Positions 1 to 37,869 of a stretch of DNA of 64,000 nt are shown in pieces. Position 1 is the first letter of the stretch. The number at the start of each line of letters is the position of its first letter. A program made the position numbers and the translations under genes. The notes under the pieces were generated by a model that was not told the DNA's origin, did no database searches, and saw only the letters and a list, made by a program, of their open reading frames with translations. Origin of the DNA: Candidatus Woesearchaeota archaeon (GTDB taxonomy: Archaea; Nanobdellota; Nanobdellia; Woesearchaeales; 0-14-0-80-44-23); NCBI GenBank assembly GCA_038874135.1, contig JAVZCZ010000001.1:751219-815218 (forward strand), written 5' to 3'.

Positions 1-3000
1 TGCTCATACTCTTCTAACTACTTGGAAGTGCAGTGCTCAGATGAGCAAGCCTATGGCAATGCCTCTACATATTTTTACATATTTGAACTTCCATCCGTGA
101 ATACTTACGAACCGAACGATTCTGCAATAATAAACTCTTCCTCATTCCAATTTGAATATGAAATTCTGCCAGAATCGTCAGCATACTTAGTTAAAAACTG
201 CGCCCTTATATTAGATGGAACTTCCTGTAACTCTACTGATTTACCTCACAATGGAACAAACAGCATAAGCTGCCCGTTCAGTGAAGGATCTCACACTTGG
301 AAGGTGCTCTGCACACTCATAGGCTCAGGCCAGGAAACTATTGAAAGTCAAGAAAGAGGATTCTTTGCAGATTATAGTCCTCCAAATATAAACCTAATTA
401 ATCCAAACCAGCCCGCTTACAATTCAGATGTTCCCATTGAATTTAACATTACAGACTCTGCCTCTTCATCATTCAATTGCACAATATCCGGCATTCCAGC
501 ACCATTCAATCTCAGCTCACTTGTTTCCTACTCTTCTAAGCTTAACCTTCCAGTAGGAAAATATAATCTAACGATTTCCTGCTCAGATGCTGCTGGAAAT
601 TCTGCATATACTTGGCAAGAATTTGAACGAATAAATCTTTCAGTTTCAACTGACAAAAAATATTATATTCCTATGGAAAATGTGTTTATAACGCTGAACG
701 CTCCTCCTTCCCAAACAAATATCTCAGTTTCAAAAGGCAATTTCACACTGTCCAAAACAACAACTCCACCATATCCAATAGTCTACATCTTCACATCCTC
801 AAACGAGCCTGGAGATTACCTGGTGCAGGCATTTACAACATATAACAACATAACATTCACTGCCAACACCTCATTCTCAGTCAATATAACTAGAAACCTT
901 ACACTTTCAATATCAGCTAACACCACAACAGCTGAGCCCGGAGTAAGAATCCTATTCTATTCTAATGTTTCAGGAAACCTCACTCCTGTTACATACTTGT
1001 GGGACTTTAATAATGATAACCTTCCCGAAAGCAGCCTTCCAAATACCGAATACTCTTTCTCACAGCCTGGAAGATACCTCGTAACTTTAAAAGTGAACGA
1101 CTCATATTCCTCCGCCTCAGCTTCAATAAATATAACAGTGCTCTCCAGAGCAAATTTGAGCATTACAGTTCTTAACAGGCTTGGAGAACCTCTCGCTGGA
1201 GCAAACATCACGCTAGGCAACACATCTGCCATAACCAACTCCTCTGGAGCAGCAGTCATGCAGAATCTGCTTCAAGGCACATACCCTATAAATGTAACAG
1301 CCACAAATTACAATTCGTATTTCAACACAGTGGACATTTCCTCTAACAAAAACATAACAATATATCTACAAGAGCTCACAGAAGAGCCGGAAATCCTAAT
1401 AACAGAACCAACAGATGGTGCTACAATAACATCCCTTCCAATTACAATAAGGTTCAAAGCAAATTTATCATATCCTACAAACTGCACACTATACAAAAAT
1501 GAACAACAATCCTGGTGGGAACAGCTTTCTCAGATGGCTGTTACAAACAACACTGAAAATACCTTGTCAGTAGCCAATCTCACGGACGGGCAAGTTCTTC
1601 TAAGAATCGTATGCACAGATGTATTCGGAAACAGTGGCACCCAACAGATTTCCCTTAACATCAGCACACTACCAAAAGAGCCGCAATATCCAGAACTAGA
1701 CCAGGCAGAAGAAGAGCTCTACACAAAACAGGAATACTACAACAGCATAGGACCAGCACAGCTTGAAGCAGCTCAACTATTAGGTATACCTGATATGCTC
1801 TCAGATGCTCAGAACCGATTAACACTCGCCAGGAGGGATCTCTCAGACCTCTCATATTCAAAAAAGAGCCCGGAGGAAAAAGAAGCAAGAAAGAGTGAAA
1901 TAATATCTGACGCCGTTTCACGAATCAATGCAATTCCAGATTCAATACAGGTGCTATCTTCTTATGAACAGATACACTATCCAACTCAGCAAGAGCTGGA
2001 AAAGGTGGCAGCTCCCTTCATCTCAGCTAATTCTCTGAAGATAGACCAGCGGACATTCCTAAGAGCAAACTCTCCACTTATTGAGCTAATAACAATAAAT
2101 ACAAAAGCGTTTTCAATAGTGCTAAATTATAACGGGGAGAGCCGAGAAGTGTCTGTAATAAAGCACTCTGTACAGCTCAGCCAACAGCTTAACGAATCAG
2201 CAATCTCAAACCTGATGTTAATACTCAATATTCCAAAACAGATAGCTGACTCAGCAGCAGGAATCACATTTATGGACAGGTATGGACAAAAAGTAGTCAA
2301 AGATGATCCAATCTTTTCACTTCCTGTTACAAGCGAAATAGTTTACCAAATAAACAAGAGCATTGATGCAAATTCTGCTTCTGAGATATCACTCCTCTTA
2401 GTAAGCAAGAGTGCTTCAGTTTCAATACCAGGCATATCGGGACTGGCAGTTTCACAGACAAGGTATTCCATCTGGCCTTTCAATCTCATTGGAGGAAAAA
2501 TTGGCTCCAGTTTAGCTATTCAAATAGTAATACTTGTAGTGCTTCTTACCATATACTTAGTATACACCCTTCAGCCGGAAATAATAAGCAGATCAGCAGA
2601 TGCACTAGGAAATCATATCAAAAATCTCAGACCTCGCTCGGAAAATAGGATGAAGCAAATAGTCCATGCTGAGAAGTCAATTCCCACAACACTACAGAAC
2701 AATTTAGCTAGCATGCCGCAGCAACAAACATACTCACCCATTCAACAACAAGTAGTTCCCATAGGGCCTGGAATGCAGCATTCTTACATTGCTTACAGAA
2801 TGCAACGGGCTCTTCAGTTGGCAGAGCAGAACAACTATGAGGAAGCTTCAGCCGCATATTATGAATTAAAATTCCTTTATAACACGCTCAGCTCTCACGA
2901 AAAATCCCTACTTTATCCGCAATTATTAAACCTGGGACACAAGCTTAACATTTCCTATATCAGACAGTTAGTTTCAGAAGCAAAGTTAAAGGTTAATTCA

Positions 3001-3222
3001 GACTACCAAGAAGCCCTTGAACTTTATGATAAGATCTCCAAGGCATACTCACTGCTCCCTACAGAGTTCAAGTATGCAGTGTTCTCTGAATGTCTTGAGC
3101 TTCTAAACATTCTTGAAAGGGCAAGAAAAAACCAGAACAACTCTGAAAATCAAGCAGTAACCTTCAAAAAGAAAAAAAAGAGGTGCAGGTCAAAATCACA
3201 CGCCAAGGCGAGAAGGGCATAA
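1..3222 (+). CDS. 5'-partial bitopic surface glycoprotein: Ig-like/beta-sandwich ectodomain with many N-x-S/T sequons, one TM helix (LAIQIVILVVLLTIYLVYTL), Gln-rich/TPR-like cytoplasmic tail
   Basis: The frame is open from window base 1; the track's TTG 'start' at 22 is not a real start. It has NCxL..G...W.V.C.D repeats of the same family as the giant proteins downstream, a single hydrophobic helix near aa 835, and then no sequons. Its stop overlaps the next gene. Confidence 0.8.
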   Translation, partial: CSYSSNYLEVQCSDEQAYGNASTYFYIFELPSVNTYEPNDSAIINSSSFQFEYEILPESSAYLVKNCALILDGTSCNSTDLPHNGTNSISCPFSEGSHTWKVLCTLIGSGQETIESQERGFFADYSPPNINLINPNQPAYNSDVPIEFNITDSASSSFNCTISGIPAPFNLSSLVSYSSKLNLPVGKYNLTISCSDAAGNSAYTWQEFERINLSVSTDKKYYIPMENVFITLNAPPSQTNISVSKGNFTLSKTTTPPYPIVYIFTSSNEPGDYLVQAFTTYNNITFTANTSFSVNITRNLTLSISANTTTAEPGVRILFYSNVSGNLTPVTYLWDFNNDNLPESSLPNTEYSFSQPGRYLVTLKVNDSYSSASASINITVLSRANLSITVLNRLGEPLAGANITLGNTSAITNSSGAAVMQNLLQGTYPINVTATNYNSYFNTVDISSNKNITIYLQELTEEPEILITEPTDGATITSLPITIRFKANLSYPTNCTLYKNEQQSWWEQLSQMAVTNNTENTLSVANLTDGQVLLRIVCTDVFGNSGTQQISLNISTLPKEPQYPELDQAEEELYTKQEYYNSIGPAQLEAAQLLGIPDMLSDAQNRLTLARRDLSDLSYSKKSPEEKEARKSEIISDAVSRINAIPDSIQVLSSYEQIHYPTQQELEKVAAPFISANSLKIDQRTFLRANSPLIELITINTKAFSIVLNYNGESREVSVIKHSVQLSQQLNESAISNLMLILNIPKQIADSAAGITFMDRYGQKVVKDDPIFSLPVTSEIVYQINKSIDANSASEISLLLVSKSASVSIPGISGLAVSQTRYSIWPFNLIGGKIGSSLAIQIVILVVLLTIYLVYTLQPEIISRSADALGNHIKNLRPRSENRMKQIVHAEKSIPTTLQNNLASMPQQQTYSPIQQQVVPIGPGMQHSYIAYRMQRALQLAEQNNYEEASAAYYELKFLYNTLSSHEKSLLYPQLLNLGHKLNISYIRQLVSEAKLKVNSDYQEALELYDKISKAYSLLPTEFKYAVFSECLELLNILERARKNQNNSENQAVTFKKKKKRCRSKSHAKARRA

Positions 3223-5564
3223 TTTGTGCTCTGCTTTTAGGAATTGTAACTATAATCTTAGGTAGTTATGCCTGCGCTTTGGAATTTTCACCATCTTCAA
3301 TTAACGAAGTGCTTTCTATTAACAAGTTTGTTCAGAAAAACATAACTTTGAAGAATGAACTCTCCTATCCGGTAAGGATTGCTCTGGTGCCCTCTTCTAA
3401 CATTAGCGATTTATTAGACATCACTCCAAATTCTATTGAAATCGGGGCAAGAGAGTCAAAGAATGTTCTGGTTACAATATACGGAAATGTTGATCCTATA
3501 AAATTTATTAATCGCTCGTATTACATCTTTAATGGCTTCATAAAGCTTGAAGGAGCTAACGCTCAAATACCTACGGACTTGATGGTCACTAATGGAACAA
3601 TAAACCTGCCCAGCAGCATGGTGCTTTCAGCATCGGCAGGTAAGGATTATTTCACTAAATCAGAAAATCTCTCTTTTATAATTGTTGTAACGAATCTTAT
3701 GACAGGCTCAAAACCAAATGTTACTCTTTTCTATTATTTCCTAATTGATAAAAACTCAGAAATTCCCGTTGGGAACGATTCCTTCATAATTACTACTTCA
3801 AAATCAGTTGTAAAGGAATTCATACCAATGTCTTCAATACCTGATGGCACCTATACTTTCAGGGTTGTAATGTCTTATGCAGATAAGAAGAGTGTTGCTG
3901 ATGTGCCCTTCAGGATATCAACCCCATTTATATTCAGAACATTCTTAGGTATAGCTGTATGGCAGTATATACTCGGAGTGATTGCCTTAATAATAATTGG
4001 CTTGTTAGTATACTGGCGAAGGAAGCGTGTTTTGGCTTCTCGTCGTTATGGTGTGAGTGTGGATTTGCGTAGTTTTCCTTCTTCTGGTAGGCTTGTGCGT
4101 TTGGGTAAGTTGGCGGAGTATGGGCGTGATTTTTGGTTTGATTTGGATGGTTTGACTACGCATTGTATTGTGGCTGGTGCTACTGGTGGTGGTAAGACTG
4201 TTGCTGCTCAGGTTTTGGTGGAGGAGGCTTTGAAGGCTGGTGTGGCTGTGGTTGTTTTTGATCCTACGGCTCAGTGGAGTGGTTTTTTGAGGCCTTGTTC
4301 TGATAAGGGTATGTTGTCTTTGTATTCGGGTTTTGGGTTGCGTCGTTCTGATGCTCGGGGTTTTCCGGGTAATGTGAGGCAGGTGTTGGATGCTCGTGAG
4401 GTTTTTGATGTTAGGCGTTTTATGCGTCCTGGTGAGATTGAGATTTTGAGTTTGAATAGGTTGAGGCCTGAGGAGATTGATGTTTTTGTGGCTAATACTG
4501 TTAGGAGCGTGTTTGATGCGGGTTTGGATGAGTGTCGTGAGTTGAGGTTGTTGTTGGTTTATGATGAGGTGCATAGGTTGTTGCCGCGTTTTGGCGGTTC
4601 TGGTGAGGGTTTTGTGCAGATTGAGAGGGCTTGTCGTGAGTTTAGGAAGTGGGGTGTTGGTGTTGTTTTGATTAGTCAGGTTTTGTCTGATTTTGTTGGT
4701 GAGATTAAGGCTAATATTAATACTGAGGTTCAGATGAGGACTCGTGATGAGGGCGATTTGGAGCGTATTCGTGTTAAGTATGGTGATGCTTATCTTAGGG
4801 GTCTTGTGAGGGCTAGTGTGGGTACTGGTATGTTTGAGAATCCCGGTTATAATGGTGGTCGTCCTTTTTTTGTTAGTTTTAGGCCTTTGTTGCATAGTGT
4901 GGTTCGTTTGTCTGATGCCGAGTTGGGTGAGTATAATAGGTTGAATGGGGTGTTGGATGATTTGGAGTTTTGGATTGGCGAGTTGGAGCGTTTGGGTGTG
5001 GACGTGTTTGATTTGAGGTTGGAGTTGAAGTTGGCTTGGGATAAGTTGAGGGTTGGGGGGTTTGGGATGGTGGATGTTTATGTTGAGGGTTTGAGGCCTC
5101 GCGTGTTGGGCGAGTTTGAGCGTTTGGGGAGGCCTGTTCCTAAGCGTGAGGTTAAACGCCTTTCAGATGAGGAGCTTGCAAAGCAGAGGAAGCTGGCTGA
5201 GCAGAGCCGTGCAGAGTTTATAAAAAAGATGGGCATTAAAGAGCAGCAGTCCAAGCAGGAGGAAAAGAAGGAAGAACACATCGTGCAGCCTTACACTTTT
5301 GATAATGGTGCAATGGTTTCGGAGCTTAAGGAGTTGAAAGACGCTATAGAACCTATGAGTGCTGACATCCTCAGAAGCGCGTTGAGTGGAAACAATAAGC
5401 TTTCTGATTGGATAAAGAATGAGCTTAAGAATGAGCAGCTTGCCTCTGAAATTGAGAAGGCGAAGACGAAAAAGGAGATTCTTGATGCAATAACTGCTGA
5501 ACTTGATAAAGCAGAAAAGAGCAGTGAGAAATCTGGAACTGATAAAGGCCAAAAGTCTAAGTAG
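3183..5564 (+). CDS. Receptor-ATPase 1: signal/anchor, ~250-aa glycosylated ectodomain (two beta-sandwich domains), TM helix, cytoplasmic HerA/FtsK-superfamily (DUF87-like) P-loop ATPase, C-terminal adaptor domain
   Basis: GTG start with K/R n-region then a hydrophobic stretch. Sequons occur only before the TM helix (GIAVWQYILGVIALIIIGLLVYW). Walker A is AGATGGGKT, Walker B is LLLVYDEVHRL, and VVLISQ is a sensor-like block. The C-terminal ~65 aa match the HVNFERND-type domain of ORFs 26656..27150 and 35335..37869. Confidence 0.85.
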   Translation: MQVKITRQGEKGIICALLLGIVTIILGSYACALEFSPSSINEVLSINKFVQKNITLKNELSYPVRIALVPSSNISDLLDITPNSIEIGARESKNVLVTIYGNVDPIKFINRSYYIFNGFIKLEGANAQIPTDLMVTNGTINLPSSMVLSASAGKDYFTKSENLSFIIVVTNLMTGSKPNVTLFYYFLIDKNSEIPVGNDSFIITTSKSVVKEFIPMSSIPDGTYTFRVVMSYADKKSVADVPFRISTPFIFRTFLGIAVWQYILGVIALIIIGLLVYWRRKRVLASRRYGVSVDLRSFPSSGRLVRLGKLAEYGRDFWFDLDGLTTHCIVAGATGGGKTVAAQVLVEEALKAGVAVVVFDPTAQWSGFLRPCSDKGMLSLYSGFGLRRSDARGFPGNVRQVLDAREVFDVRRFMRPGEIEILSLNRLRPEEIDVFVANTVRSVFDAGLDECRELRLLLVYDEVHRLLPRFGGSGEGFVQIERACREFRKWGVGVVLISQVLSDFVGEIKANINTEVQMRTRDEGDLERIRVKYGDAYLRGLVRASVGTGMFENPGYNGGRPFFVSFRPLLHSVVRLSDAELGEYNRLNGVLDDLEFWIGELERLGVDVFDLRLELKLAWDKLRVGGFGMVDVYVEGLRPRVLGEFERLGRPVPKREVKRLSDEELAKQRKLAEQSRAEFIKKMGIKEQQSKQEEKKEEHIVQPYTFDNGAMVSELKELKDAIEPMSADILRSALSGNNKLSDWIKNELKNEQLASEIEKAKTKKEILDAITAELDKAEKSSEKSGTDKGQKSK
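4021..5176 (+). repeat. Copy 1 of an exactly duplicated 1156-bp cassette encoding the complete cytoplasmic HerA/FtsK-like ATPase module
   Basis: It is identical to 8201-9356 at a constant offset of 4180. The embedded antisense ORFs 4005..4895 and 8191..9075 translate identically. Identity begins immediately after the TM helix codons and ends at ...KRLSDEEL. Confidence 0.9.
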
Positions 5565-5740: not shown

Positions 5741-5752
5741 TTGGGACCCGAA

Positions 5753-5941
5753 ATGCGCAGTACGCCTGAGAAGCATGGCTCAAAGAGAATAACCATAACC
5801 ATAAGCAAGGACCTTTTAGACTTCTTAGATTTAGCTGTGGAGAACAGGCTGTTCGCAAGCAGAAGTCATGCACTTGAAGTCTTAGTAAGGCGCAGGATGG
5901 AGTTTGAGAATGAAGCAAAGAATTACAATTACATTGGATAG
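5753..5941 (+). CDS. Ribbon-helix-helix (CopG/Arc/MetJ-like) DNA-binding protein; alternative TTG start at 5741
   Basis: KRITITISKDLLDFLDLAVENRLFASRSHALEVLVRR is a beta-strand of alternating hydrophobics followed by two helices, the classic RHH layout. An AT-rich promoter-like region lies upstream. Confidence 0.65.
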   Translation: MRSTPEKHGSKRITITISKDLLDFLDLAVENRLFASRSHALEVLVRRRMEFENEAKNYNYIG

Positions 5942-6101
5942 TGAATGCCTGGCATGGGTTGATGAAAAGGTAAAGAATAGAAGCTTTGCTAATCGGAGCC
6001 ACGGCTTTGAATTTTTAATAGCGCGATTCAAGGAGCGCCAAGAACTTCAGAATCTTCTCAACTCGCGAAATTCAAAGGAGGAAGACTTAAAACATGAATA
6101 A
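5910..6101 (+). CDS. Second ribbon-helix-helix protein, tandem paralog of the previous one; ATG at 5910 preferred over the track's TTG at 5904
   Basis: QRITITLDSECLAWVDEKVKNRSFANRSHGFEFLIARF matches the RHH pattern. It overlaps the upstream RHH gene by ~32 nt, and its stop overlaps the ATG of the downstream ATPase gene (ATGAATAA). Confidence 0.65.
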   Translation: MKQRITITLDSECLAWVDEKVKNRSFANRSHGFEFLIARFKERQELQNLLNSRNSKEEDLKHE

Positions 6102-9100
6102 AAATCCTACCTTCAGGATACTGGAACGGGACAGGCAGCTGGAAAGGAGAAGACAGCAGCTGTACATCCTATTAGGCATCTTAGGAGTTTTACTAGCAGT
6201 TGGTGTTATACTTCTGATAAGAATGTTCATAGGATACGCAGTTCTGGAAAGCAGGGCTGGCACAATAACACAACTTAATATACAGCTCAGATACTCAACA
6301 CACATATGGGCTGGATTTTACGGATTGGCATTCCGCGTTCCCGGATACACTGAGCAGCAGTCTGCAGTTGCAGTCGGCGGCACAGTCTTCTTGCAGCACT
6401 TAGTATTTGACTGCTTAAAAACTACAGACGGCAACATTCCTGAGGTATATGCCAGTACTTCAAGAAACATTGACTGGAATTCACTCCAGCCAGCAACTCC
6501 AGACTTGATTGACAGCTACCTACAAGTAGATCCTTCAGATATAACCTCTGCTTCAAACACATTTACAGAAACAATGTCAATACTCTTAGGAGACAGAGAA
6601 ATCACAAATATTGCTGCAACGCACACCAAAAAGTTCGGAGTTCCGGACAGCACGGACTTTGATATAGGCTTCTTAAAAGATTCGTTGGGAAATCTCGTAT
6701 TTGTAACCCATGTAACTCCAACTTATACCAAAGGATTTAACAACCAAACTATAAACTACCAAATGCTCCTTCCAGTACAAGCAGGAACAGCTCCAGTATA
6801 CTACTTCTTCTCAGACCCATATGACGAGTGCCAAGCAGGGCTTGAAGCTCTCAAAAATGCTACCATATTCGGAAGAGCCATAGACAATGCAACAGGCCTT
6901 CCACTTGAAAATGTTACAGTTAATCTTCATACTGCTACAGTTCTTACCAACTCTACAGGAGACTATTACATAGCAATATTTAACGGCACCTACACCCTAG
7001 TAGCTTTCAAGCCGGGATATTACACCTTTGTTGCAACAAACATCACTCTCCCAGCTGACAATCTGTCTACACCTCAATCTGAAAATATTGTCGAATTTAA
7101 TATATCCCTCATTCCCAACCCTGGAAACCCAACTGGACTCGGAAACCTAACTGGCACTGTAACTGATAAAGACTTCGGAATACCCCTCTATAATGTAACA
7201 GTGTATGTAAACGGCAGAATCGCTAAGACAAACATTACAGGCCAATACCTACTTGAACTGCCAGCAGGAAATCATTCTCTTATAGCAATGAAGGAAAACT
7301 ACAGAACATACTACACTCCAAATGTAACTATACTGCCTGGAAACACCACTGAATTTAATTTCAGTATGGAATATGCAGAGCCAGAAATAAAAGAAACTCC
7401 TGGATATCCGCTAAATACCTTCGTTTCCAACCTACTCAAACAGGCAGTGCAGAGGCCTCAAATAATACTCACTCATAAGATTGATACAAAAGAGATATTT
7501 GAAACATTAAAAGTTGGCTCATATGTCCAGCGCTCATTCAATATAACGAGTTACAGGCCTGCCGAGTCCAAAGTTGAGTTTGAAGTCATAGGAAGTGCTG
7601 CACAGCTGGTAAAGGTTGACAAGAGCAGCTCAATAATACCTCCAAGGGGTGCAGAAAACTTCACCCTTACAATTCTAGCCAATGTGCCTCCAGGCATATA
7701 TACCGGAACATTCCTAATCAAAGGAGACCTTGAAGACAGAATCCCGATAAAGATAGTTGTTTATGAGAAGGATAGACTTCCAATAGAGGCTCTTCTCCTA
7801 GAAGTAGTGCCAATAAAAAAGATAATCAGCCCAGGAGAACTATTTGAATATAAGGTCAGCATGACAAACCTGCTGAGGGACACCCCATACAACATCACCC
7901 TTTCATACAATATCACCTCGCGCTCTTCAAATCTTACTATTCCCGTTGAAGAAGAGACGAGACTCTTGGAAACTCAGCTTTCCTACCTTAAGTATTACAA
8001 GCTTCCCAAAGACCTGCCAGAAGGAGAATACTTCCTTGAAACTAGAGCGGAATTCTTAGAACTATCAACAAACACAAAATCGCTATTCATAGTTAAGAAG
8101 CCAATTTACATGTATGCATTATTCGGAATACTTCCCCTCTGGCAGCTTTTCATAATAATAGTTTTCACCTCCCTCATGACCTTCGCAGGATTAATGTATC
8201 GGAAGCGTGTTTTGGCTTCTCGTCGTTATGGTGTGAGTGTGGATTTGCGTAGTTTTCCTTCTTCTGGTAGGCTTGTGCGTTTGGGTAAGTTGGCGGAGTA
8301 TGGGCGTGATTTTTGGTTTGATTTGGATGGTTTGACTACGCATTGTATTGTGGCTGGTGCTACTGGTGGTGGTAAGACTGTTGCTGCTCAGGTTTTGGTG
8401 GAGGAGGCTTTGAAGGCTGGTGTGGCTGTGGTTGTTTTTGATCCTACGGCTCAGTGGAGTGGTTTTTTGAGGCCTTGTTCTGATAAGGGTATGTTGTCTT
8501 TGTATTCGGGTTTTGGGTTGCGTCGTTCTGATGCTCGGGGTTTTCCGGGTAATGTGAGGCAGGTGTTGGATGCTCGTGAGGTTTTTGATGTTAGGCGTTT
8601 TATGCGTCCTGGTGAGATTGAGATTTTGAGTTTGAATAGGTTGAGGCCTGAGGAGATTGATGTTTTTGTGGCTAATACTGTTAGGAGCGTGTTTGATGCG
8701 GGTTTGGATGAGTGTCGTGAGTTGAGGTTGTTGTTGGTTTATGATGAGGTGCATAGGTTGTTGCCGCGTTTTGGCGGTTCTGGTGAGGGTTTTGTGCAGA
8801 TTGAGAGGGCTTGTCGTGAGTTTAGGAAGTGGGGTGTTGGTGTTGTTTTGATTAGTCAGGTTTTGTCTGATTTTGTTGGTGAGATTAAGGCTAATATTAA
8901 TACTGAGGTTCAGATGAGGACTCGTGATGAGGGCGATTTGGAGCGTATTCGTGTTAAGTATGGTGATGCTTATCTTAGGGGTCTTGTGAGGGCTAGTGTG
9001 GGTACTGGTATGTTTGAGAATCCCGGTTATAATGGTGGTCGTCCTTTTTTTGTTAGTTTTAGGCCTTTGTTGCATAGTGTGGTTCGTTTGTCTGATGCCG

Positions 9101-9636
9101 AGTTGGGTGAGTATAATAGGTTGAATGGGGTGTTGGATGATTTGGAGTTTTGGATTGGCGAGTTGGAGCGTTTGGGTGTGGACGTGTTTGATTTGAGGTT
9201 GGAGTTGAAGTTGGCTTGGGATAAGTTGAGGGTTGGGGGGTTTGGGATGGTGGATGTTTATGTTGAGGGTTTGAGGCCTCGCGTGTTGGGCGAGTTTGAG
9301 CGTTTGGGGAGGCCTGTTCCTAAGCGTGAGGTTAAACGCCTTTCAGATGAGGAGCTGCAGAAGGAAAAGGAGATTGCTATGCAGGAACATGAGAAAGCAA
9401 AACAGCAGGAAGCAGGACAAACTTCACAAAATTCAGATTCCAAGACAGAAACTTCCCAAATTCAAAACACAAAAGTTGAAGAGCAGCCCAGCCAAAATGA
9501 AAAGGCCGAGAACCAAGAGAATGCAAAATCCTCAAATGAAAATAAAATTAAAAGAGTAAGGGAGGGTAAAAAGCAGAGGATGAGGAAATCAGCAAGTTCG
9601 GAAAAAAATAATAAAAAAAGAGGTGCTAAAAAATGA
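6094..9636 (+). CDS. Receptor-ATPase 2: N-terminal signal-anchor, ~640-aa glycosylated ectodomain (two carboxypeptidase-regulatory-like domains plus two membrane-proximal beta-sandwich domains), TM helix, cytoplasmic HerA/FtsK-like ATPase identical to that of ATPase 1, K/E/Q-rich low-complexity tail
   Basis: RRRQQLYILLGILGVLLAVGVILLI is the anchor. GRAIDNATGLPLENVTVNLHTATVLTNSTGDYYIAIFNGTYTLVAFKPGYY and a second similar unit are CarboxypepD_reg-like. The second TM helix is LFIIIVFTSLMTFAGLMY. Nucleotides 8201-9356 are identical to 4021-5176. Confidence 0.85.
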   Translation: MNKNPTFRILERDRQLERRRQQLYILLGILGVLLAVGVILLIRMFIGYAVLESRAGTITQLNIQLRYSTHIWAGFYGLAFRVPGYTEQQSAVAVGGTVFLQHLVFDCLKTTDGNIPEVYASTSRNIDWNSLQPATPDLIDSYLQVDPSDITSASNTFTETMSILLGDREITNIAATHTKKFGVPDSTDFDIGFLKDSLGNLVFVTHVTPTYTKGFNNQTINYQMLLPVQAGTAPVYYFFSDPYDECQAGLEALKNATIFGRAIDNATGLPLENVTVNLHTATVLTNSTGDYYIAIFNGTYTLVAFKPGYYTFVATNITLPADNLSTPQSENIVEFNISLIPNPGNPTGLGNLTGTVTDKDFGIPLYNVTVYVNGRIAKTNITGQYLLELPAGNHSLIAMKENYRTYYTPNVTILPGNTTEFNFSMEYAEPEIKETPGYPLNTFVSNLLKQAVQRPQIILTHKIDTKEIFETLKVGSYVQRSFNITSYRPAESKVEFEVIGSAAQLVKVDKSSSIIPPRGAENFTLTILANVPPGIYTGTFLIKGDLEDRIPIKIVVYEKDRLPIEALLLEVVPIKKIISPGELFEYKVSMTNLLRDTPYNITLSYNITSRSSNLTIPVEEETRLLETQLSYLKYYKLPKDLPEGEYFLETRAEFLELSTNTKSLFIVKKPIYMYALFGILPLWQLFIIIVFTSLMTFAGLMYRKRVLASRRYGVSVDLRSFPSSGRLVRLGKLAEYGRDFWFDLDGLTTHCIVAGATGGGKTVAAQVLVEEALKAGVAVVVFDPTAQWSGFLRPCSDKGMLSLYSGFGLRRSDARGFPGNVRQVLDAREVFDVRRFMRPGEIEILSLNRLRPEEIDVFVANTVRSVFDAGLDECRELRLLLVYDEVHRLLPRFGGSGEGFVQIERACREFRKWGVGVVLISQVLSDFVGEIKANINTEVQMRTRDEGDLERIRVKYGDAYLRGLVRASVGTGMFENPGYNGGRPFFVSFRPLLHSVVRLSDAELGEYNRLNGVLDDLEFWIGELERLGVDVFDLRLELKLAWDKLRVGGFGMVDVYVEGLRPRVLGEFERLGRPVPKREVKRLSDEELQKEKEIAMQEHEKAKQQEAGQTSQNSDSKTETSQIQNTKVEEQPSQNEKAENQENAKSSNENKIKRVREGKKQRMRKSASSEKNNKKRGAKK
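8201..9356 (+). repeat. Copy 2 of the 1156-bp ATPase cassette
   Basis: See copy 1; it is a direct repeat in the same orientation. Confidence 0.9.
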
Positions 9637-10457
9637 AGTCAAAAAAATCAGTTAAGTATAGAGCGAGAGTTCACAATAAGGCTAACTCAAGCAAGAAAGA
9701 TTTGAGAAAAAAGAAGGTTCGCATTGAGAGAAAAAATAGCACTAAAACAATTAGTAAAGAAACATCACCTAAAAAATCCAAAGCTTACTTAAAAAAGCGA
9801 TTTGGCAAGATTGATAACAGAGTTATTAAAAATAAAAATAATAAAGTAAAACCAGGAGCTTTAAAGCACAGAAAAAAAGAGAAGAAGCAGAATGTTCAAA
9901 AAAGAAGAAAAGCAATGCAAAAAAAGCCAGCGCCTGAAAACGCAGCCGCAGCAACCAACCAAGTACAGACAAATACGACTTCAACAGCTCAGCAGGCAAA
10001 TTCTCAAATTGAAACACATTCAGATGTGGAAGCGCTTCAAAAAGAATACTCAGATATCAACAGCTATCTGGTTCAGCGAAGAAAAGCGGGAGTTGACACC
10101 TTCATACAGGAACTGAAACTTTTTTCAATACCGTCAAAAATTCAGCTTTTAAAGGCAGAATACTCAAAAGATTATGCTGACAAGATTAGAGTTCAACTTA
10201 ATGAGATTAGAGAAGAGTTAGAAAAAGCAGAACCTCAACCGACCCCCCTTGACCTTCCTAAAGTTCAGCCGAACCAGCCGAATCCATTCTCAGAGCAACA
10301 GCTCACAAGTCAGAATAATAATCATCCCTTAACGCAGGATGCAGAAAACTATTCAAAAGAACTAGCTGAGAAGCGCCTTTCAAATAAAATAAAAAATTCT
10401 CTGAGAAATGCTTCCAAAAAAGTTATGTCCATATTCAAAAAAGGAGGTGGAAATTAG
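9633..10457 (+). CDS. Lysine-rich basic protein (histone H1-like low-complexity N-terminal half) with C-terminal coiled-coil region
   Basis: Its ATG overlaps the upstream stop (ATGA). The N-terminal ~100 aa are about 35% K/R (KKSVKYRARVHNK...KKEKKQNVQKRRKAMQKK). The C-terminal part has heptad-like periodicity. Internal alternative-frame ORFs (9296..9559, 9892..10116) are artefacts of the A-rich sequence. Confidence 0.6.
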   Translation: MKSKKSVKYRARVHNKANSSKKDLRKKKVRIERKNSTKTISKETSPKKSKAYLKKRFGKIDNRVIKNKNNKVKPGALKHRKKEKKQNVQKRRKAMQKKPAPENAAAATNQVQTNTTSTAQQANSQIETHSDVEALQKEYSDINSYLVQRRKAGVDTFIQELKLFSIPSKIQLLKAEYSKDYADKIRVQLNEIREELEKAEPQPTPLDLPKVQPNQPNPFSEQQLTSQNNNHPLTQDAENYSKELAEKRLSNKIKNSLRNASKKVMSIFKKGGGN

Positions 10458-11615
10458 ATGTTCAACCTTTTCAAACGGAAAAACTCTGAAGAAGTTCCCA
10501 ATCAACAATCAGCTAACGAAGATCTGACAGCTCCAGCACAAACCCAGCAAACTGCTACTACGCAAGGACAGGAAAACCTCGCTGCAGAATTAATGAAGAT
10601 TAAGGCAGAAGTGGAAGCATTTTCAGATGTAAGAAAAGCCACAAATGAGAAACTTACAAGACTAAGCGAGCAGATTGGAGAGCTAAGAGCAATGATTGCA
10701 GACAGAGACAAGGTGATGAATCAGATAGAGGTTAAAGCTACAAAGGCAGCAGATCTCGTAGCCACAGTTAAGCCTGAAGAGCAGATGGTAGAAATAAAGC
10801 GTCAGGATGCAAAACTTGAAGCGTTTAAAGCATCTCTGGAGAGCAATGAACTTTTGATGAAGAGAGTTTTAGACGAACTTAAAGAGATGAGAACAAAGAT
10901 AGCTTCCTTCCGCGGAATTGAGGAACTAATCAACCTTAACAATGAAGTAAAATCTGAAATAATTGAAATAAAAAAGGTTGAAGCAAACATACAAAAGCAT
11001 GCAGACAAGGTAGAAACGATATTTGCAGAGGTTCAGAAAAGATTCGTTGACTTTACAAAAATTGATGATAGGATAGCATCCAACACGAAGCAAATAGCAG
11101 AGCTATCAAAGAACTTGGACGGAGTGAAGGCAACTGCCTCGGCAGCAGCCACAAAAAAGAGTGTAGATGAACTAACTTCCAAATTCTTAGAAATGAAAGA
11201 CCAACTCTCAGAACTGGTTTCAACAATAAACAAGCGCCTCTCCTTAGTGGAGAAGAACAATTCTGCAGCATTTGAAGCTTTTGAAAAAGCGATAATGCAC
11301 AAGTTTAAACTTTCAAAAGAGGAAGTAGCTGTATTTAAAGAGCAAGTACAGCAGAATCAGCAAGCCCAGCCAACTCAGCAAATATCCCAGCCGCAGGATG
11401 TCTCTCAAAAGAGCAATACTCAAGAGCAAAATCTTCAGACCAGTGAAGCACCCGAAGCTCTACCACAGCCGCAAGCCTCTCAGCAGGTTCAGCAGCCGCA
11501 GAGTGAGCCAAATGAGCAAGACTCAAAAAAGCCTGACAGCAGCATTCAGAAAGAGATAAGAGAAGCAGCCAAGTTTGCTAAAAGGATAAAAAGCAAAAAA
11601 AGAAAGAAGAAATGA
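10458..11615 (+). CDS. Long coiled-coil protein with Gln-rich ends and K-rich C-terminus (scaffold/filament-like)
   Basis: It starts directly after the upstream stop. The central ~250 aa have a continuous heptad pattern (ELMKIKAEVEAFSDVRKATNEKLTRLSEQIGELRAMIADRDKV...). It has no TM segment. Confidence 0.65.
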   Translation: MFNLFKRKNSEEVPNQQSANEDLTAPAQTQQTATTQGQENLAAELMKIKAEVEAFSDVRKATNEKLTRLSEQIGELRAMIADRDKVMNQIEVKATKAADLVATVKPEEQMVEIKRQDAKLEAFKASLESNELLMKRVLDELKEMRTKIASFRGIEELINLNNEVKSEIIEIKKVEANIQKHADKVETIFAEVQKRFVDFTKIDDRIASNTKQIAELSKNLDGVKATASAAATKKSVDELTSKFLEMKDQLSELVSTINKRLSLVEKNNSAAFEAFEKAIMHKFKLSKEEVAVFKEQVQQNQQAQPTQQISQPQDVSQKSNTQEQNLQTSEAPEALPQPQASQQVQQPQSEPNEQDSKKPDSSIQKEIREAAKFAKRIKSKKRKKK

Positions 11616-18652: not shown

Positions 18653-21600
18653 AACGCAGCATAACTTTTGGAATAATTTTTCTACTTTTAATAGCATTAT
18701 CTCTAAAAATTTCCAGTGCGAGCTGTCCGGAAATAATACTTTCATCCAACACCACTATAAAAGATGTAGATATAAAAATAAAAGTTTCAGGGCAGACACA
18801 AGAGTCAGAATTAGTGATAAGAACGCCTTCAGGTCCGTATCGTCTTTTAGGAGATATTCCTTCCCTTACAAGCTTTACTCCAAAAGATGTAGGTAACTAC
18901 TCTGTTGAAGTTTGGCAGGACAAAGTGCTGTGTGACATAAAAAATTTTACCGCACTACCTCACAATAACTCGACACTATTCCTTCCGCCAATACTTTCCA
19001 CAGATAAAAAAGAATACCACTTAGGTGAAGCTGTTAGAATTTCACTCTCACCAGAATATTACGGTTACTCAATTGAAGGTTTAAATTTAAAACTGTTGAC
19101 AGGACAGCAATCCTACTCTCTCTTAGGGGAAATATCTGAGGATATAGAATTCCGACCTGTTTTTGAGGGTAACTATACAATTCTCTTATTAGACTCCATT
19201 GGAAATACTCTTGCTTCTGAAAGCTTTTCCGTCTACGCTTTGAATAGTTACTTTGTTAATAACTTATCTATTAAAAAACGATTTTCGGACAAATTTGAAT
19301 ACAACATCAGCACTAATTCAGAAGACATGATTGTTGAATTCTCAAACTCCTTCATTAAAAGACTAAACCTAAAGAAACTATCTTCAAGTAATCTGGCGAT
19401 AGTTAGGATTTCAGAGTTACTGCCGGAAGAGAGGAGCCGTCTGAATATTCCTACAATTGGAGGTGAAATTAAAGAATCTTTTGAATTAGATCCTTCCGCC
19501 CTAAACTTTTCAGAAGGTGAACTAACAATTGTCCCTTCAGGAAATGAGCTGTGGAAGTGCACTGATTGGAATTATGATGCTCAGTATTGTGTCGGAAGTT
19601 GGATCAAGCAGCAGAATCTTGTTCCCGGTGTTGAAAATGTAATTAAGTTTAACCTTTCCGATCCAGGATATGCTATTGTTGCAACTGCTAACATAACTTC
19701 AATAGCAGCAGCAACCCTCTCTGAAAACTCTTTTGTAGTAGCATATTGCGATGATACAAATGATAGAACTGCTTTCAAGGTTTTCTGGGCTAATGGGAGT
19801 GTAAGAACTAATGAGGTGATAGTTGATTCAACTACTGGAAATTGTGGTTACACCTCAGTTTCTGTTTCAGCACTTACCAACAACTCTTTTGTTATCGGAT
19901 GGATTGATACTGCCAGCAGTTATGCCAGCTTCGCTGTTTATGATGCCTCTGGAAATGTTATTACTCCAAGGGTGGATGTGGATACTACTGCTGGTACTTC
20001 CCGTTCTGTGAGTGTGTCTGCTTTTAATAGTTCTGCTTTTGTTTTTGGTTGGTATGATCAGGCTTCTGCTTATGCTTCTTTTAGGACTTTTAGTTCTTCT
20101 GGTGTGGCTATTTCTTCTGTTGTTAATGTGGATACTACTGCTGGTACTTGTAATGCTGTTTCTGTTTCTGCGGTTAATTCTTCTGCTTTTGTTTTTGGCT
20201 GGTATGATCAGGCTTCTTCTGATATGACTTTTCGTACTTATACTTCTTCTGGCGTTGCGATTTCTGCCGTGACTGATGTGAATACTAAGGTGGGTACTGG
20301 TTCTTTTTCTGTTTCTGTTGCTGCTTATAATTCTAGTGCTTTTGTTATTGTTTGGTATGATCAGAGGCTGGGTTATGTTAGTTTTCGTCAGTATTCTGTT
20401 GCTGGTGTTCAGATTGGGAGTCAGGTTAATCCGGATACTGCTGTTGGGACTACTGCTTCTGGTGTTTTTGTTTCTTCTGTTGGTGTGAATTCTAGTGTTT
20501 TTGCTGTGGGTTGGAATGATTTGACTACTGATGTTGTTAGTTCTGTGAGGACTTATAGTGGTGCTGGTGCTGCTGTTTCTTCTGAGGTGGTTGTGCAGGC
20601 TAATGCTTTGAAGTATAATGCTCTTGCCGGCTACTACCCTGCTACAGGCATAGGTTTCTGCAATGGAAACTTTGTAGCAATAATTGTTAATACTTCTTCG
20701 CAGGCATTTTTTAAAGCATACATGCCTAATGGAAGCGAATGGGACGGAAACTGTCCTGATGTTATACCGCCTCAAGTTGTTCTGAATAGTCCTCAGCAAG
20801 CCGCTGTCTTCTATAGTGATACTGTGGATTTTAATTTTACAGTAACCGACAATGTAGATTTAGTAATTCCAAACTGTACCCTTTGGATAAACACTTCATC
20901 AACATTCTCTCCAAACATAACAATTTACAATATAACCTCTAATAAGATGAACAACATAACTCTATCTCAAATTCCAGACAACAAATACATTTGGAATGTC
21001 AGGTGTTATGACAATGCAGGCAACTCAGCATTTGCTTCTTCAAATTTTTCATTATTTATCAACAAGAATCCACCTCAAATCTTGAACCCCCTCCTGAATG
21101 AAAGTACAGTAAATCAGAGCCATTCAGTAAAGTTTAATGTCTCAATAACCGATTCATATGGTATAGACTCTGCATATATAACTATGATGTACCCAAACGG
21201 TTCATCAAATAATTATTATCTTAATAGAAGTGGGAATGAATTTTACTTCATAATTAATAATACAATCCAGATAGGAACATATTCTGTGATATATGTGTGG
21301 GCTAATGATACCCTCGGACAAAACTCTTCTCTAACCCTTTCAGATCTCCAGTTTAATGTCACGCCTTCACCACCTGCTCAATTCAACCTTTTAAGTCCCC
21401 CGAATGCAACAGAGTCAACAAACCTGCGACCAAACTTGACTTGGGAGACATCTTACGATGAGACATTCCTTAATTATACTATTCAGATTTCTCAGGATGA
21501 AAACTTCGCAACAGTACTCTTTACATATTATAATCCGGGTGTTTATAATACTTCAAGAGTGCTGGATTATGCCCTAGAAGCGAATAAGAAATATTACTGG

Positions 21601-35338: not shown

Positions 35339-37869
35339 TTTATTCCGTTCAATATTTTCAGCATTTCTTCCTTATTTCTTGCTTTTCTTAATCTTGCCGC
35401 TAAATTCCTATCCCTAATCTCGTCCCTTATCCAATCTGCAAGATCGTTCCTTTCAAAATTGACATGGTAGTTGAAAGTGTCAGAGTCGGCATATTTAATC
35501 TCCCTTTTGAGTTCTTCTATACTTCTAACAACTCTCCCATTGTAAAGATGCAGGGGATTTATTTTAAGTCCGCATTCACTTTTGGGCTGATTTGAGCTTT
35601 TCAATTCTTTTTCTTCTCCACTCTTAACTTGGCTTCTTATTTCTTCTAACCTTTTTATTCTACTTCTCAACTCTTCAGCTTCCTCTGGAGAAAGATCTCT
35701 TGGATCTATGCTTTTTAACTCTTCAAGCACAGAATCAACATTCTGTACATCTTCTTTTTCTTCCAGCAAGCCTTCTTCTCCGCTGAATTCATCTTCATAA
35801 AAAGTTTCCTTTCCCATTCTGAAATAATAAAATGCAAGAGCCGTCACAATAAAAACACCCATCACTATTCCAACATATTTTGAACTGCTTCTTAAAGTTT
35901 CAAAAACAGAATATCCGCTTATATTGTTTTTTTCATAAGTCGGCTTTTTAAGTAGGACTGATTTTATACTTCCCAAATCGCTTTCTGATACTTTAGAGTT
36001 TACTACGAACTTGATAACATTTTCTTTTCCATTTGTGGGGAAGCCTATTATAGGGTCACTTTGGATTATTGTGTAGCCCTTGCTTATGAAGCGAAGTTTA
36101 GATACATCTTCTGCAATGTTTTTCGGAATCAGCATTACAATTGAGGAGTTGTTTTCTTCCTTATCTAAAATGAGTTTATCTTCAATAAATGTGATATGCT
36201 CAGTGGAGCCCTCATATATTATGCTTACAAGCCTTCCGGAAATCAACTGCTTAACTCCTTCCTGTTCAGAGCTGACCTTCTTTATATAGTCTAAGTCTCC
36301 AGAATTTTGCGGGTAAGTCTTTGAAATGGCAGACACCACATCTTCGTTGTTTGCCCTTACTTCAACTTCTGAGTAGTTCGTTAATTCTAAACTTAGAGGA
36401 ACAGCACTTAGCAGCGATCTTAATGCTATCTTCTGCCTTGAAACCTCAGAAAGTATGTCTTCATCTTTTGAAGTGCTCGTTCTTAACCCTTTCAATTCTG
36501 AGATTACTCCTTCAAGTCTCATCAATGAGTTTTGCGCCTCTTCTAATAAGCCGGTTGCATCCAGAATTTCTGAAGGGATTTCTTGCATTTTTTGGATTCT
36601 CTTCTGAATTTCCACCTTAGCAGCTTCTGCAGAGCTTATCGCTTCGCCTATACTCCTTATTGTTTGCGGGGAAAGTTCAGAATCAACATCACTTTTAACA
36701 GCTATCGCACTTACCTCATTAGAAAGCCCGCCTTCATTTCCAGCCAGGTCAACTGCTGATACTGCGTAGTAATATGTTTTTCCTTCCGCTACATTTCTAT
36801 CAACATAATATGTTTCACTAGTCTTATCGTAGTAATCCAGATAGCTTACTCCAGTTGAAGAGCTTCTATATATTCTAAATTCTGATATGTTATCCCCTTC
36901 AAATCTTATACTTAAATTTATCTTACCATCTTTTTGAGATGAAGCGCTTAGGATTGGCGCTTCAGGTGCTACTGTATCTATTATGAAAAGTTTTCCAGAA
37001 GTTATTAGGTCCCCACTTGTGCCATAGTAATCAGTACCCCTGAATGAAAAAGAGCCTATCTTGTTTCCCATACCCTTATCAATTATGAGATACCCGCGCC
37101 AAACCCTTCCAGAACCGACTAGGTCTATACTTTTTATGTTATCATCCACCTTATATGTTAATATTGGCGTTGGTACTAATTCAGTTGAAGCTGTTAGAGT
37201 AACCTCATACAGCCCATCCTTCAATGGTGGATTTTTTGAGAGCGAAATCTGAGCATAGACTGGACTTCTCACATAAAAGTTTATAACTTGTTCAACCTTG
37301 TTTCCAACAGAATCAAAACATCTTATCAGGTATGACTTTGGGCCTTGAGATAGTCCTGAGAGGATAGTTTGATGGCTGAAACCATCTGCACTTTCCAGTT
37401 GCCTTTTTACTCCTGAAGATTCGTAGGAACAGTTAGCCCTTTCATTAGTCGCAACGAACATCATAACATAATCTGTGCTTATTGAGCCAGAAGGCCCGCT
37501 TCCCACTATTAAGGGGGGTGTAGTGTCTACTGTAAAATTAATTAGAATCGGAGTGCTGCTCTCATTGTTTAAGTTGGTGCAGACGGCATAGAATTCATAG
37601 TAATCGTCTTCCAAGCTTAGGTTCAGCCAGTGTTCTGTGTCGTTACCCTGCATAAGATTTTCCATCTGTGAATATGTAACATTGTTTTCTGATATTCTGC
37701 AGAGAGCACTCTCGTTTGTTATTGTGAGAAGATTAACATTTTTATTATTGGTGTCTGCTGTTGGTGCATATGCAACTATCTTTGGAGCGGCAAGAGTGGA
37801 TGTTGCACACGCTATTGTGATAATCAGGATTATTATGTTCTCCTTCCACGAGATGTGATAATTTTTCAT
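35335..37869 (-). CDS. 844-aa bitopic surface receptor: signal peptide, Ig/FN3-like ectodomain, TM helix, cytoplasmic coiled-coil plus C-terminal HVNFERND-type adaptor domain
   Basis: The signal peptide is MKNYHISWKENIIILIITIACATSTLAAP. The TM helix is YVGIVMGVFIVTALAFYYF. The C-terminus LHLYNGRVVRSIEELKREIKYADSDTFNYHVNFERNDLADWIRDEIRDRNLAARL matches gene 26656..27150. Confidence 0.8.
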   Translation of the reverse strand: MKNYHISWKENIIILIITIACATSTLAAPKIVAYAPTADTNNKNVNLLTITNESALCRISENNVTYSQMENLMQGNDTEHWLNLSLEDDYYEFYAVCTNLNNESSTPILINFTVDTTPPLIVGSGPSGSISTDYVMMFVATNERANCSYESSGVKRQLESADGFSHQTILSGLSQGPKSYLIRCFDSVGNKVEQVINFYVRSPVYAQISLSKNPPLKDGLYEVTLTASTELVPTPILTYKVDDNIKSIDLVGSGRVWRGYLIIDKGMGNKIGSFSFRGTDYYGTSGDLITSGKLFIIDTVAPEAPILSASSQKDGKINLSIRFEGDNISEFRIYRSSSTGVSYLDYYDKTSETYYVDRNVAEGKTYYYAVSAVDLAGNEGGLSNEVSAIAVKSDVDSELSPQTIRSIGEAISSAEAAKVEIQKRIQKMQEIPSEILDATGLLEEAQNSLMRLEGVISELKGLRTSTSKDEDILSEVSRQKIALRSLLSAVPLSLELTNYSEVEVRANNEDVVSAISKTYPQNSGDLDYIKKVSSEQEGVKQLISGRLVSIIYEGSTEHITFIEDKLILDKEENNSSIVMLIPKNIAEDVSKLRFISKGYTIIQSDPIIGFPTNGKENVIKFVVNSKVSESDLGSIKSVLLKKPTYEKNNISGYSVFETLRSSSKYVGIVMGVFIVTALAFYYFRMGKETFYEDEFSGEEGLLEEKEDVQNVDSVLEELKSIDPRDLSPEEAEELRSRIKRLEEIRSQVKSGEEKELKSSNQPKSECGLKINPLHLYNGRVVRSIEELKREIKYADSDTFNYHVNFERNDLADWIRDEIRDRNLAARLRKARNKEEMLKILNGIK

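Follow-up and report, generated by a model that had tools for sequence, protein, structure and literature searches.

Three proteins encoded in a 64,000-nt stretch of DNA from a Candidatus Woesearchaeota archaeon (contig JAVZCZ010000001.1, positions 751,219 to 815,218; the whole stretch is called the window below) end in the same small, predicted cytoplasmic module: a membrane HerA-like ATPase (ATPase-1), a soluble protein of 164 residues (p164) and a bitopic receptor of 844 residues (p844). Each of the three tails is one unit of about 70 residues of the DUF5752/OrfY family. This family and its fold (PDB 4CSO) are already known; what is new is the occurrence of single-unit variants on a membrane HerA-like ATPase, on the tail of a receptor and on a soluble protein with an 'ELPPLA' motif, and also a conserved DPANN supercluster and a strong association of DUF5752 with glycogen gene clusters. 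In the literature searched, no paper was found that deals with DUF5752 (PF19027), with the OrfY protein of Thermoproteus tenax or with DUF87 of DPANN archaea.

Three window proteins each carry one DUF5752 unit

A profile hidden Markov model (HMM) was built from 46 homologues from other genomes and zero window sequences (the foreign-only HMM) and searched against 921 translated pieces of the window. The three proteins and their modules were located as follows.

3183-5564, + strand: ATPase-1, 793 aa
5292-5492, + strand: ATPase-1 module, aa 704-770, in the C-terminal tail; divergent copy, foreign-only HMM E 2.5e-15
26656-27150, + strand: p164, soluble, 164 aa, without a transmembrane helix
26929-27138, + strand: p164 module, aa 92-161; canonical copy, foreign-only HMM E 5.9e-29
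35335-37869, - strand: p844, bitopic, 844 aa
35344-35553, - strand: p844 module, aa 773-842, at the cytoplasmic C-terminus; canonical copy, foreign-only HMM E 9e-26

An earlier description of this DNA made from its letters (the first-pass annotation) had proposed that these proteins end in alignable domains, and the three C-terminal sequences it gave were all present, with coordinates agreeing within about 10-35 nt. Pairwise BLASTP comparisons upheld the common domain (p164 and p844, 42% identity, E 9e-21; ATPase-1 and p844, 34%, E 4e-12; ATPase-1 and p164, 18%, E 2e-6), the module of ATPase-1 being 16-31% identical to those of p164 and p844, and the foreign-only HMM scores above demonstrated significant homology in the profile search that had been suggested as a check. 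A fourth copy was not found, as the next match of an HMM built from the three copies in the six frames had an E value of 1.4 and the best non-module piece reached an E value of 0.27 with the foreign-only HMM.

In Pfam the matches to DUF5752 stayed below threshold. The gathering cut-off for this family (PF19027) is 23 bits, and p844 scored 20.6 bits over profile positions 14-79 of 208, p164 scored 18.1 bits and ATPase-1 had no match. The PF19027 profile spans two units, with homologous halves at about positions 6-85 and 128-197, and isolated single units of undisputed relatives scored 19.3-26.1 bits against it; the low scores of p164 and p844 thus reflect the comparison of a single unit with a two-unit profile and not absent homology. 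PF19027 was matched by 98 of 117 relatives (best E 5e-14), and a profile search across the PDB gave a sole real match, to both repeats of the 216-aa chain of 4CSO (OrfY of T. tenax, E 1.2e-4). The AlphaFold2 model of the p844 tail, a beta-hairpin followed by five short helices, was confident (mean predicted local distance difference test score, pLDDT, 89.6; predicted template modelling score, pTM, 0.74), and Foldseek matched it in the PDB to 4CSO chains only (4cso_A/B/D; TM-score 0.74-0.83, probability 1.00), the remaining matches being noise. The window proteins therefore share the fold and sequence signature of OrfY, on which the p844-tail model superposes with TM-scores of 0.80-0.83, but differ from the two-unit soluble proteins of about 210 aa that typify OrfY and PF19027, in that each carries one unit, on a membrane ATPase, a receptor tail or a short soluble protein. 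They were filed as single-unit variants and not as OrfY orthologues.

The family consensus reads F.L.NG..lKnL.EL..aL..MD..tF..HVN..KNDFa.WI.....D..LA, with conservation at F1, G6, L15, L19, F27, H30, V31, K35, N36, D37, F38, W41 (99%), L51 and A52. The signature H-V-N-x2-(K/R)-N-D-F-x2-W, with G6, L15 and L51-A52, is present in p164 (HVNFERNDFANW) and p844 (HVNFERNDLADW) but not in ATPase-1, which reads SALS-GNNKLSDW at this place; this corrects the first-pass annotation, which had described all three as 'HVNFERND..W.R'-type. The ATPase-1 copy departs from the consensus at H30 (A), D37 (K) and F38 (L), and within the signature (ALS-GNNKLSDW) kept only G, L, N36, W and LA. Across 216 modules the median isoelectric point (pI) was 6.3 and the median net charge -1, and no catalytic features were recognised in the module.

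The order of parts differs between the three carriers. ATPase-1 consists of an N-terminal signal anchor, an ectodomain of about 225 aa, a transmembrane helix (aa 257-275), a P-loop ATPase of the HerA/FtsK clade, a linker and the module; its ATPase assignment rests on Pfam matches above cut-off (DUF87, 37.8 bits against 23.2; HerA_C, 37.4 bits against 22), a Walker A motif (GATGGGKT) and distant matches to HerA structures in the PDB. In p844 a signal or N-terminal transmembrane segment precedes a predicted glycosylated ectodomain of about 635 aa, a predicted transmembrane helix (aa 665-683; nt 35821-35877) and a 160-aa tail that is made up of an acidic linker of about 90 aa and the module, while p164 begins with short 'E(V/L)PPLA' motifs that are joined to the C-terminal module by a disordered or helical linker. 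The location on the cytoplasmic side, as had been claimed, is supported by this topology, in which the module lies after the ATPase domain (ATPase-1) or after the transmembrane helix (p844), and by N-glycosylation sequons, which numbered 2.0-3.3 per 100 aa in the predicted ectodomains, the predicted cytoplasmic parts having none.

Some other assignments were considered and rejected. The match of the ATPase-1 tail to DUF7118 was not significant (Pfam E 0.027, 14 bits), and matches of p164 and p844 to DELLA, MitMem_reg and Nuf2 were below cut-off and fell on coiled-coil or low-complexity regions.

Distribution of the module and its association with glycogen gene clusters

To estimate family size, an HMM was run exhaustively against 1.84 billion cluster representatives (50% identity clusters), and it returned 4,640 proteins at E <= 1e-3 and 2,450 at E <= 1e-10, corresponding to about 2.5 per million representatives. 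A word-index protein search was too insensitive for a domain of 70 aa, returning one match for the p164 module and none for an alignment of 49 sequences. Among the best 150 proteins the module was present once in 74, twice in 75 and three times in 2, and its position was C-terminal in 55, N-terminal in 49 (often with a C-terminal transmembrane anchor) and stand-alone in 30 (<=140 aa). Carriers included HerA-like membrane ATPases, bitopic surface proteins, tail-anchored membrane proteins, GH57 glycosidases and coiled-coil or disordered soluble proteins, and throughout these the module was on the predicted cytoplasmic side, connected to its carrier by a long flexible linker.

Gene context was surveyed by scanning one genome per species with the pattern [RK]ND[FL]A[ND]W[VI][RNL], which gave 194 confirmed loci; the best 80 (numbered with the prefix L below) were analysed, their open reading frames (ORFs) being clustered and the cluster representatives scanned against Pfam. 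These 80 were chosen by similarity to the p164 module (an alignment of eight sequences) and by one motif pattern, and the sample is biased towards p164-like modules. Most of the 80 loci belonged to Woesearchaeota, Nanoarchaeota and Pacearchaeota, with many from Methanosarcinales, some from Altiarchaeota and Aenigmatarchaeota and a dozen from bacterial metagenome-assembled genomes (MAGs). At least two module proteins were encoded in 39 of the 80 loci, mostly by adjacent and co-oriented genes. Modules sorted by orthology and not by genome, their signature being conserved at 35-50% identity between unrelated contexts and between domains of life, and no concerted evolution of the modules within one genome was detected.

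In 39 of the 80 loci, from archaea as well as bacteria, module genes were embedded in a conserved alpha-glucan cluster with the order GT4/GT5 starch-synthase-like gene, GH57 glycosidase (1e-83), one to three small module genes, GT3 glycogen synthase (9e-135) and GDE_C debranching enzyme, accompanied by a sugar-nucleotidyl transferase, a GalT-like enzyme and sometimes a MinD/ParA ATPase. The module was fused to the C-terminus of GH57 itself in nine loci, and in four (L007, L029, L039, L058) such a fusion was the sole module gene within 14-20 kb. The glycogen loci encode 60 module proteins, of which 20 are tail-anchored, with an N-terminal module and a C-terminal transmembrane helix. We take the OrfY gene to lie in the treT operon.

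The domain is not specific to the system encoded in the window: it belongs to a widespread DUF5752/OrfY family, with glycogen clusters at 39 of 80 loci and fusions to GH57. This comes near to the contrary case that the first-pass annotation had itself named, a generic motif; the link to the ATPase family described below is real as well.

In four glycogen clusters (L008, L044, L070, L081) a MinD/ParA-type ATPase gene lay directly 3' of the small DUF5752 genes. This adjacency hints that a cellular body, for instance the glycogen granules, might be positioned with the module proteins as adaptors.

A conserved DPANN supercluster with the module on ATPase, soluble protein and receptor

The p164/p844 block of the window was recovered in related genomes. 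In L092, a Joint Genome Institute (JGI) metagenome locus, two giant proteins are followed by a p164 orthologue (51% identical) and by proteins of 256, 71, 242, 304, 756 and 395 aa, and the locus continues on the opposite strand with a 554-aa protein and a 1002-aa p844 orthologue, an order that mirrors window positions 11612-37869 and in which the p164 and p844 orthologues both carry the module. The p164 orthologue of L092 kept both the 'PPLA' motif and the module, and the p164 module was 71% identical to that of another orthologue, P0039. Between p844 and its L092 orthologue identity was 49% in the module, 32% in the linker and 40% in the ectodomain, and p844 orthologues with the module were found in L021, L023, L092 and P0080. 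L021 and L023 combine a p844 orthologue (E 1e-65 to 1e-72), a soluble protein with a C-terminal module and the same secreted paralogues as in the window, while L035 and L076, which overlap on one contig, encode an ATPase with the module, an ORF of about 590 aa, a giant protein, a soluble module protein and a member of the 256-aa family. The proposed link of the domain to a free-standing protein and a receptor is therefore upheld by retention of the module in syntenic L092, L021, L023 and L035/L076. Because p164-, p844- and ATPase-type proteins keep the module in syntenic clusters, the supercluster, with the module on ATPase, soluble protein and receptor, is ancestral in this group.

Two further features of the block are relevant here.

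26704-26736 and 26776-26802, + strand: short motifs of the p164 N-terminus, 'E(V/L)PPLA / ELPxIAEL'
27454-30112, + strand: paralogous secreted proteins of 256, 230 and 305 aa, homologues of which adjoin module-bearing genes

Motifs of the 'DELPPLA' type were present in 28 of 162 sequences (including three redundant P0039 copies) compared to 0.3 expected by shuffling. They lie at residues ~12-40, sometimes after an N-terminus of the form 'MVKKxIxGLLKKK', and mark soluble proteins with C-terminal DUF5752 units; the motif is possibly a docking peptide.

The secreted paralogues (27454-30112, also 30160-33636) share the pattern 'YYGNVTG.IVLDD ... TTTYYFYVEL' and are constant companions of p164- and p844-type proteins in related genomes, homologues having been found beside module genes in L012, L021, L023, L035, L068, L089 and L092. 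Neither Pfam nor the PDB gave a match for them, and they may be building blocks of a surface structure.

Upstream of this block lies an ATPase operon, for which the further members are as follows.

6094-9636, + strand: ATPase-2, an ATPase-1 paralogue with identical core and a long ectodomain
9633-10457, + strand: lysine-rich 274-aa protein in the operon position that c4 proteins occupy in relatives (synteny)
10458-11615, + strand: coiled-coil protein of 385 aa, strictly conserved in the ATPase operon and without a Pfam family

Close orthologues of the window ATPase core (E 1e-137 to 1e-154) were found in 12 loci, all from DPANN, and 10 of the 12 ATPases have one or two tail modules. The operon order in these loci is a small ribbon-helix-helix (RHH) protein, a surface protein of about 1,000 aa, the ATPase, one or two N-terminal-module proteins of about 220-290 aa (c4), a coiled-coil protein and a giant surface protein, and 13 module proteins of the ATPase loci have the module after a transmembrane helix. 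With phmmer, homologues of the 385-aa protein (E 1e-47 to 1e-58) were detected in 10 of these 12 loci, and in every case they lay 3' of the genes for module proteins.

As these 12 loci had been retrieved via the module, an independent test was seeded with the ATPase core alone, and was restricted to relatives in which the core is complete at its C-terminal end (n=93; many sequences end at contig ends). The module was present in 26 of the 93 (28%), and its share climbed with tail length, to 24 of 52 (46%) for tails of at least 100 aa and 11 of 14 (79%) for tails of at least 150 aa. Given how rare the domain is among cluster representatives, the association of module and ATPase is very strong, and the presence of the module on this ATPase family lies far above chance.

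The orthologous ATPases carry a canonical proximal unit and a distal unit of the form 'HVGEDYNHFADW', and the derived form of ATPase-1 was also present in a metagenomic orthologue (P0099). ATPase-2 has no module and ends in a low-complexity tail, whereas its orthologues (about 1,250-1,600 aa) carry one or two modules. No module was detected in the 274-aa protein, unlike the c4 proteins of relatives, with which it shares the C-terminal region of about 65 aa only ('RKAGVDTFIQELKLFSIPSKIQ'; BLASTP to the c4 protein of L015, E 5e-9). ATPase-2 and the 274-aa protein have thus lost the module, so that part of the system functions in its absence. A suspected resemblance of the shared 274-aa/c4 C-terminal motif to the C-terminal helix of the ATPase was dropped (E 2.1, not significant).

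Other observations concern the neighbourhood of the operon. Two overlapping ORFs upstream of ATPase-2 (5741-5941, 66 aa; 5904-6101, 65 aa) are RHH-like ('ITITISKDLLDFLD', 'ITITLDSECLAWVD'), a small RHH gene of the CopG type is also situated 5' of the ATPase operon in relatives, and a further RHH gene was found 5' of the upstream surface-protein gene in the source contig. The first ORF of the window, 22-3222, overlaps the start of ATPase-1 and represents the 3' end portion of the gene for a surface protein of 1,172 aa with PKD and CarboxypepD_reg domains, one transmembrane helix and a cytoplasmic tail of about 220 aa.

Possible function of the module

The reading that we favour, at a probability of roughly 45%, is that the module is a cytoplasmic co-localisation (tethering) module whose carriers share a putative partner. 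This profile is suggested by the absence of catalytic features, attachment to either end of unrelated carriers, variable copy number, co-encoded carriers and a location close to the membrane. Each carrier would be drawn to a common partner in the cytoplasm close to the membrane, and in the window the tail of ATPase-1, soluble p164 and the tail of p844 would be gathered at one place. The module is not a dedicated coupler of ATPase and receptor, and part of the system can do without it, as the cases of ATPase-2 and the 274-aa protein show. As the signature is conserved across contexts and in archaea and bacteria, the partner should be universal, either a non-protein ligand or polymer or the module itself. 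Tentatively, a conserved ligand tied to alpha-glucan (glycogen or trehalose) metabolism is preferred over self-association; the prevailing gene neighbourhood points in this direction, as do the fusions to GH57 and the tethers with a tail anchor.

Several considerations weigh against the tethering reading. It is built on architecture and gene neighbourhood, and the 49% share of glycogen loci is a biased estimate, the sample having been picked by p164-module similarity and one motif. The polar residues H30, N36 and D37 lie at a loop and a helix N-cap, may be purely structural and are no proof of a ligand site; the fold is unlike those of known carbohydrate-binding modules, which are beta-sandwiches. 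There is no evident reason for the ATPase or receptor of a surface apparatus to bind an alpha-glucan-related ligand, and the ATPase-1 copy, having no signature, may bind nothing or something else. The frequent pairing of genes for soluble and tail-anchored proteins would fit heterodimerisation equally well.

This last point leads to the explanation originally proposed, that modules bind one another, homo- or heterotypically, so that soluble p164 and the tails of p844 and ATPase-1 form a hub coupling receptors to the motor. We regard it as a real but minor possibility. Several module proteins, typically an adjacent soluble and membrane-anchored pair, are co-encoded in 39 of the 80 loci, proteins with one, two or three units exist alongside split gene pairs in a pattern of fusion and fission, and the module is enriched on the ATPase family of the window with a p164- and p844-type pair conserved in synteny. 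However, when two units were modelled in tandem the units themselves were confident (pLDDT 92) but the pTM was low (0.59), the packing of one unit on the other was not confident and their arrangement was unlike that of 4CSO (TM-score 0.33, root-mean-square deviation ~20 A). There was also no within-genome co-evolution or subtype specificity of modules, and none of these results showed the homotypic binding suggested by the first-pass annotation. Self-association would also make the glycogen-cluster and ATPase-cluster modules of one cell cross-react, it does not suit the four loci with a lone GH57 fusion, and it must contend with an ATPase-1 copy that lacks the conserved signature and with ATPase-2 and the 274-aa protein that lack the module.

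Tethering to a common partner must also be compared with the view that sharing of the module in the window is largely an evolutionary relic, that is, common descent of a mobile domain in a lineage that is losing its modules, with no present link between ATPase-1 and p164 or p844. This is unlikely in our judgement. Orthologous ATPases have one canonical and one 'HVGEDYNHFADW' module where ATPase-1 has SALS-GNNKLSDW, ATPase-2 ends in low complexity, the 274-aa protein retains only the C-terminal part of c4, and the low identity (16-31%) of the ATPase-1 module to those of p164 and p844 would agree with decay. Against this, the derived ATPase-1 module is conserved in the separate metagenomic orthologue P0099, still matches the family with an E value of 2.5e-15 and kept all core hydrophobic positions, G6, W41 and L51-A52, which argues for a folded domain under selection, and in p164 and p844 the modules are canonical and exceed the linkers in conservation.

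A role as a nucleic-acid-binding or transcription-factor domain, which on an ATPase of the HerA/FtsK type would recognise substrate DNA in the manner of FtsK gamma, is highly improbable: although 4CSO was deposited as 'ORFY PROTEIN, TRANSCRIPTION FACTOR' (the depositors' label), the ATPase carrier belongs to the HerA/FtsK clade with weak matches to the DNA-translocating CedD and TraD, and the fold has a weak and non-significant likeness to the tRNA-binding helical domains of dihydrouridine synthases (TM-score 0.42-0.54), the modules are on average slightly acidic (216 modules, values as above), the many carriers of the tail-anchored, receptor-tail or glycosidase kind are not typical of DNA-binding regulators, no known DNA-binding fold was matched by Foldseek, and RHH regulators have genes of their own in the same operons.

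Comparison with known systems

FtsK gamma is a basic, DNA-reading winged helix. The module of ATPase-1 resembles it in being small and independent and in following, by way of a flexible linker, the motor of a membrane-anchored hexameric ATPase, where a selector of partner or substrate is expected, but differs in its fold, in its near-neutral or acidic charge and in its presence on non-ATPase proteins. The ATPase itself has, like Ced (CedD, NF053655) and HerA, a P-loop core of the HerA/FtsK clade with transmembrane anchors, and it matched CedD weakly (32 bits); unlike Ced and HerA-NurA proteins it scored far under the family cut-offs (600-970 bits), and its large ectodomain, operon partners and DUF5752 tails are not features of either system.

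Eukaryotic glycogen targeting relies on CBM20 of STBD1, CBM21 of the PP1 targeting subunits and CBM48, all of them beta-sandwiches with proven glucan binding. As these do, the DUF5752 unit decorates enzymes, scaffolds and membrane tethers (here the GH57 fusion and the soluble and tail-anchored proteins) with a small module, but it is mostly helical and the analogy would be one of function only. Homotypic and docking adaptor domains such as dockerin-cohesin, death-fold and SAM domains likewise recur as small, linker-attached modules on several proteins of one system, and in contrast to dockerin-cohesin pairs there is one module type only here.

Exact repeats and other features of the window

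The window contains exactly two long exact repeats. The first is a direct repeat of 1,156 nt (4021-5176 and 8201-9356) that corresponds to the cores of ATPase-1 and ATPase-2 and ends sharply, the sequence on either side being unrelated, and the second is a direct repeat of 656 nt (19969-20624 and 30550-31205) that is common to proteins of 2612 aa (a giant protein) and 752 aa, with beta-propeller-like 'SAFVFGWYDQAS' repeats. Codon third positions in the ATPase block were G 41%, T 56%, A 1% and C 3% (GC skew +0.58, AT skew -0.44 on the coding strand), so that the G/T proportion at third positions was 0.97-1.0 in this block and 0.97 in the 656-nt repeat, compared to about 0.35-0.55 elsewhere in the same genes, and the two repeats were the only such islands among the four genes profiled. 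No G/T bias at third positions was found in orthologous ATPase cores from 12 other genomes. Identical or near-identical repeat sequence was present in several NCBI MAG contigs, so that the repeats and G/T islands are not an artefact of the window; one assembly breaks about 120 nt into the second ATPase-core copy. Transitions biased to one strand (C->T plus A->G), in combination with the copying of a tract into two genes, are a possible origin of the islands.

Antisense ORFs of 274-310 aa lie on the minus strand exactly under the G/T-rich islands (4005-4895, 8191-9075, 19867-20799 and 30460-31284), with low-complexity translations rich in T, N, Q, K and P. They are almost certainly not genes, and arise because the antisense strand of these islands is free of stop codons.

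A gene for a 95-aa HNH endonuclease is called at window positions ~42280-42567 on the minus strand, between the genes for a NOG1-type GTPase and a topoisomerase (in the matching NCBI contig, L001 5303-5590).

Implications

DUF5752 comprises thousands of clusters in archaea and some bacteria and, in spite of a solved structure, is uncharacterised. Two contexts can now be given for it, namely glycogen clusters with their GH57 fusions and the tails of an undescribed DPANN supercluster of ATPases and giant surface proteins. In its most far-reaching form, which we hold to be a long shot, the DUF5752 unit would be a new, mostly helical, cytoplasmic polymer- or ligand-targeting fold tied to alpha-glucan metabolism and recruited to the tails of the HerA-like ATPase, of its small partner proteins and of a receptor, by which a surface apparatus of Woesearchaeota-type DPANN, probably serving contact with a host, is tethered to glycogen stores or to a glycogen-enzyme complex, and if true this would be a direct structural link from surface machinery to carbon storage. 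If the module were only a generic oligomerisation tag, the finding would be ordinary. The identity of the partner would annotate thousands of hypothetical proteins, and would show how the cytoplasmic face of the surface apparatus is arranged in these small and probably host-dependent archaea.

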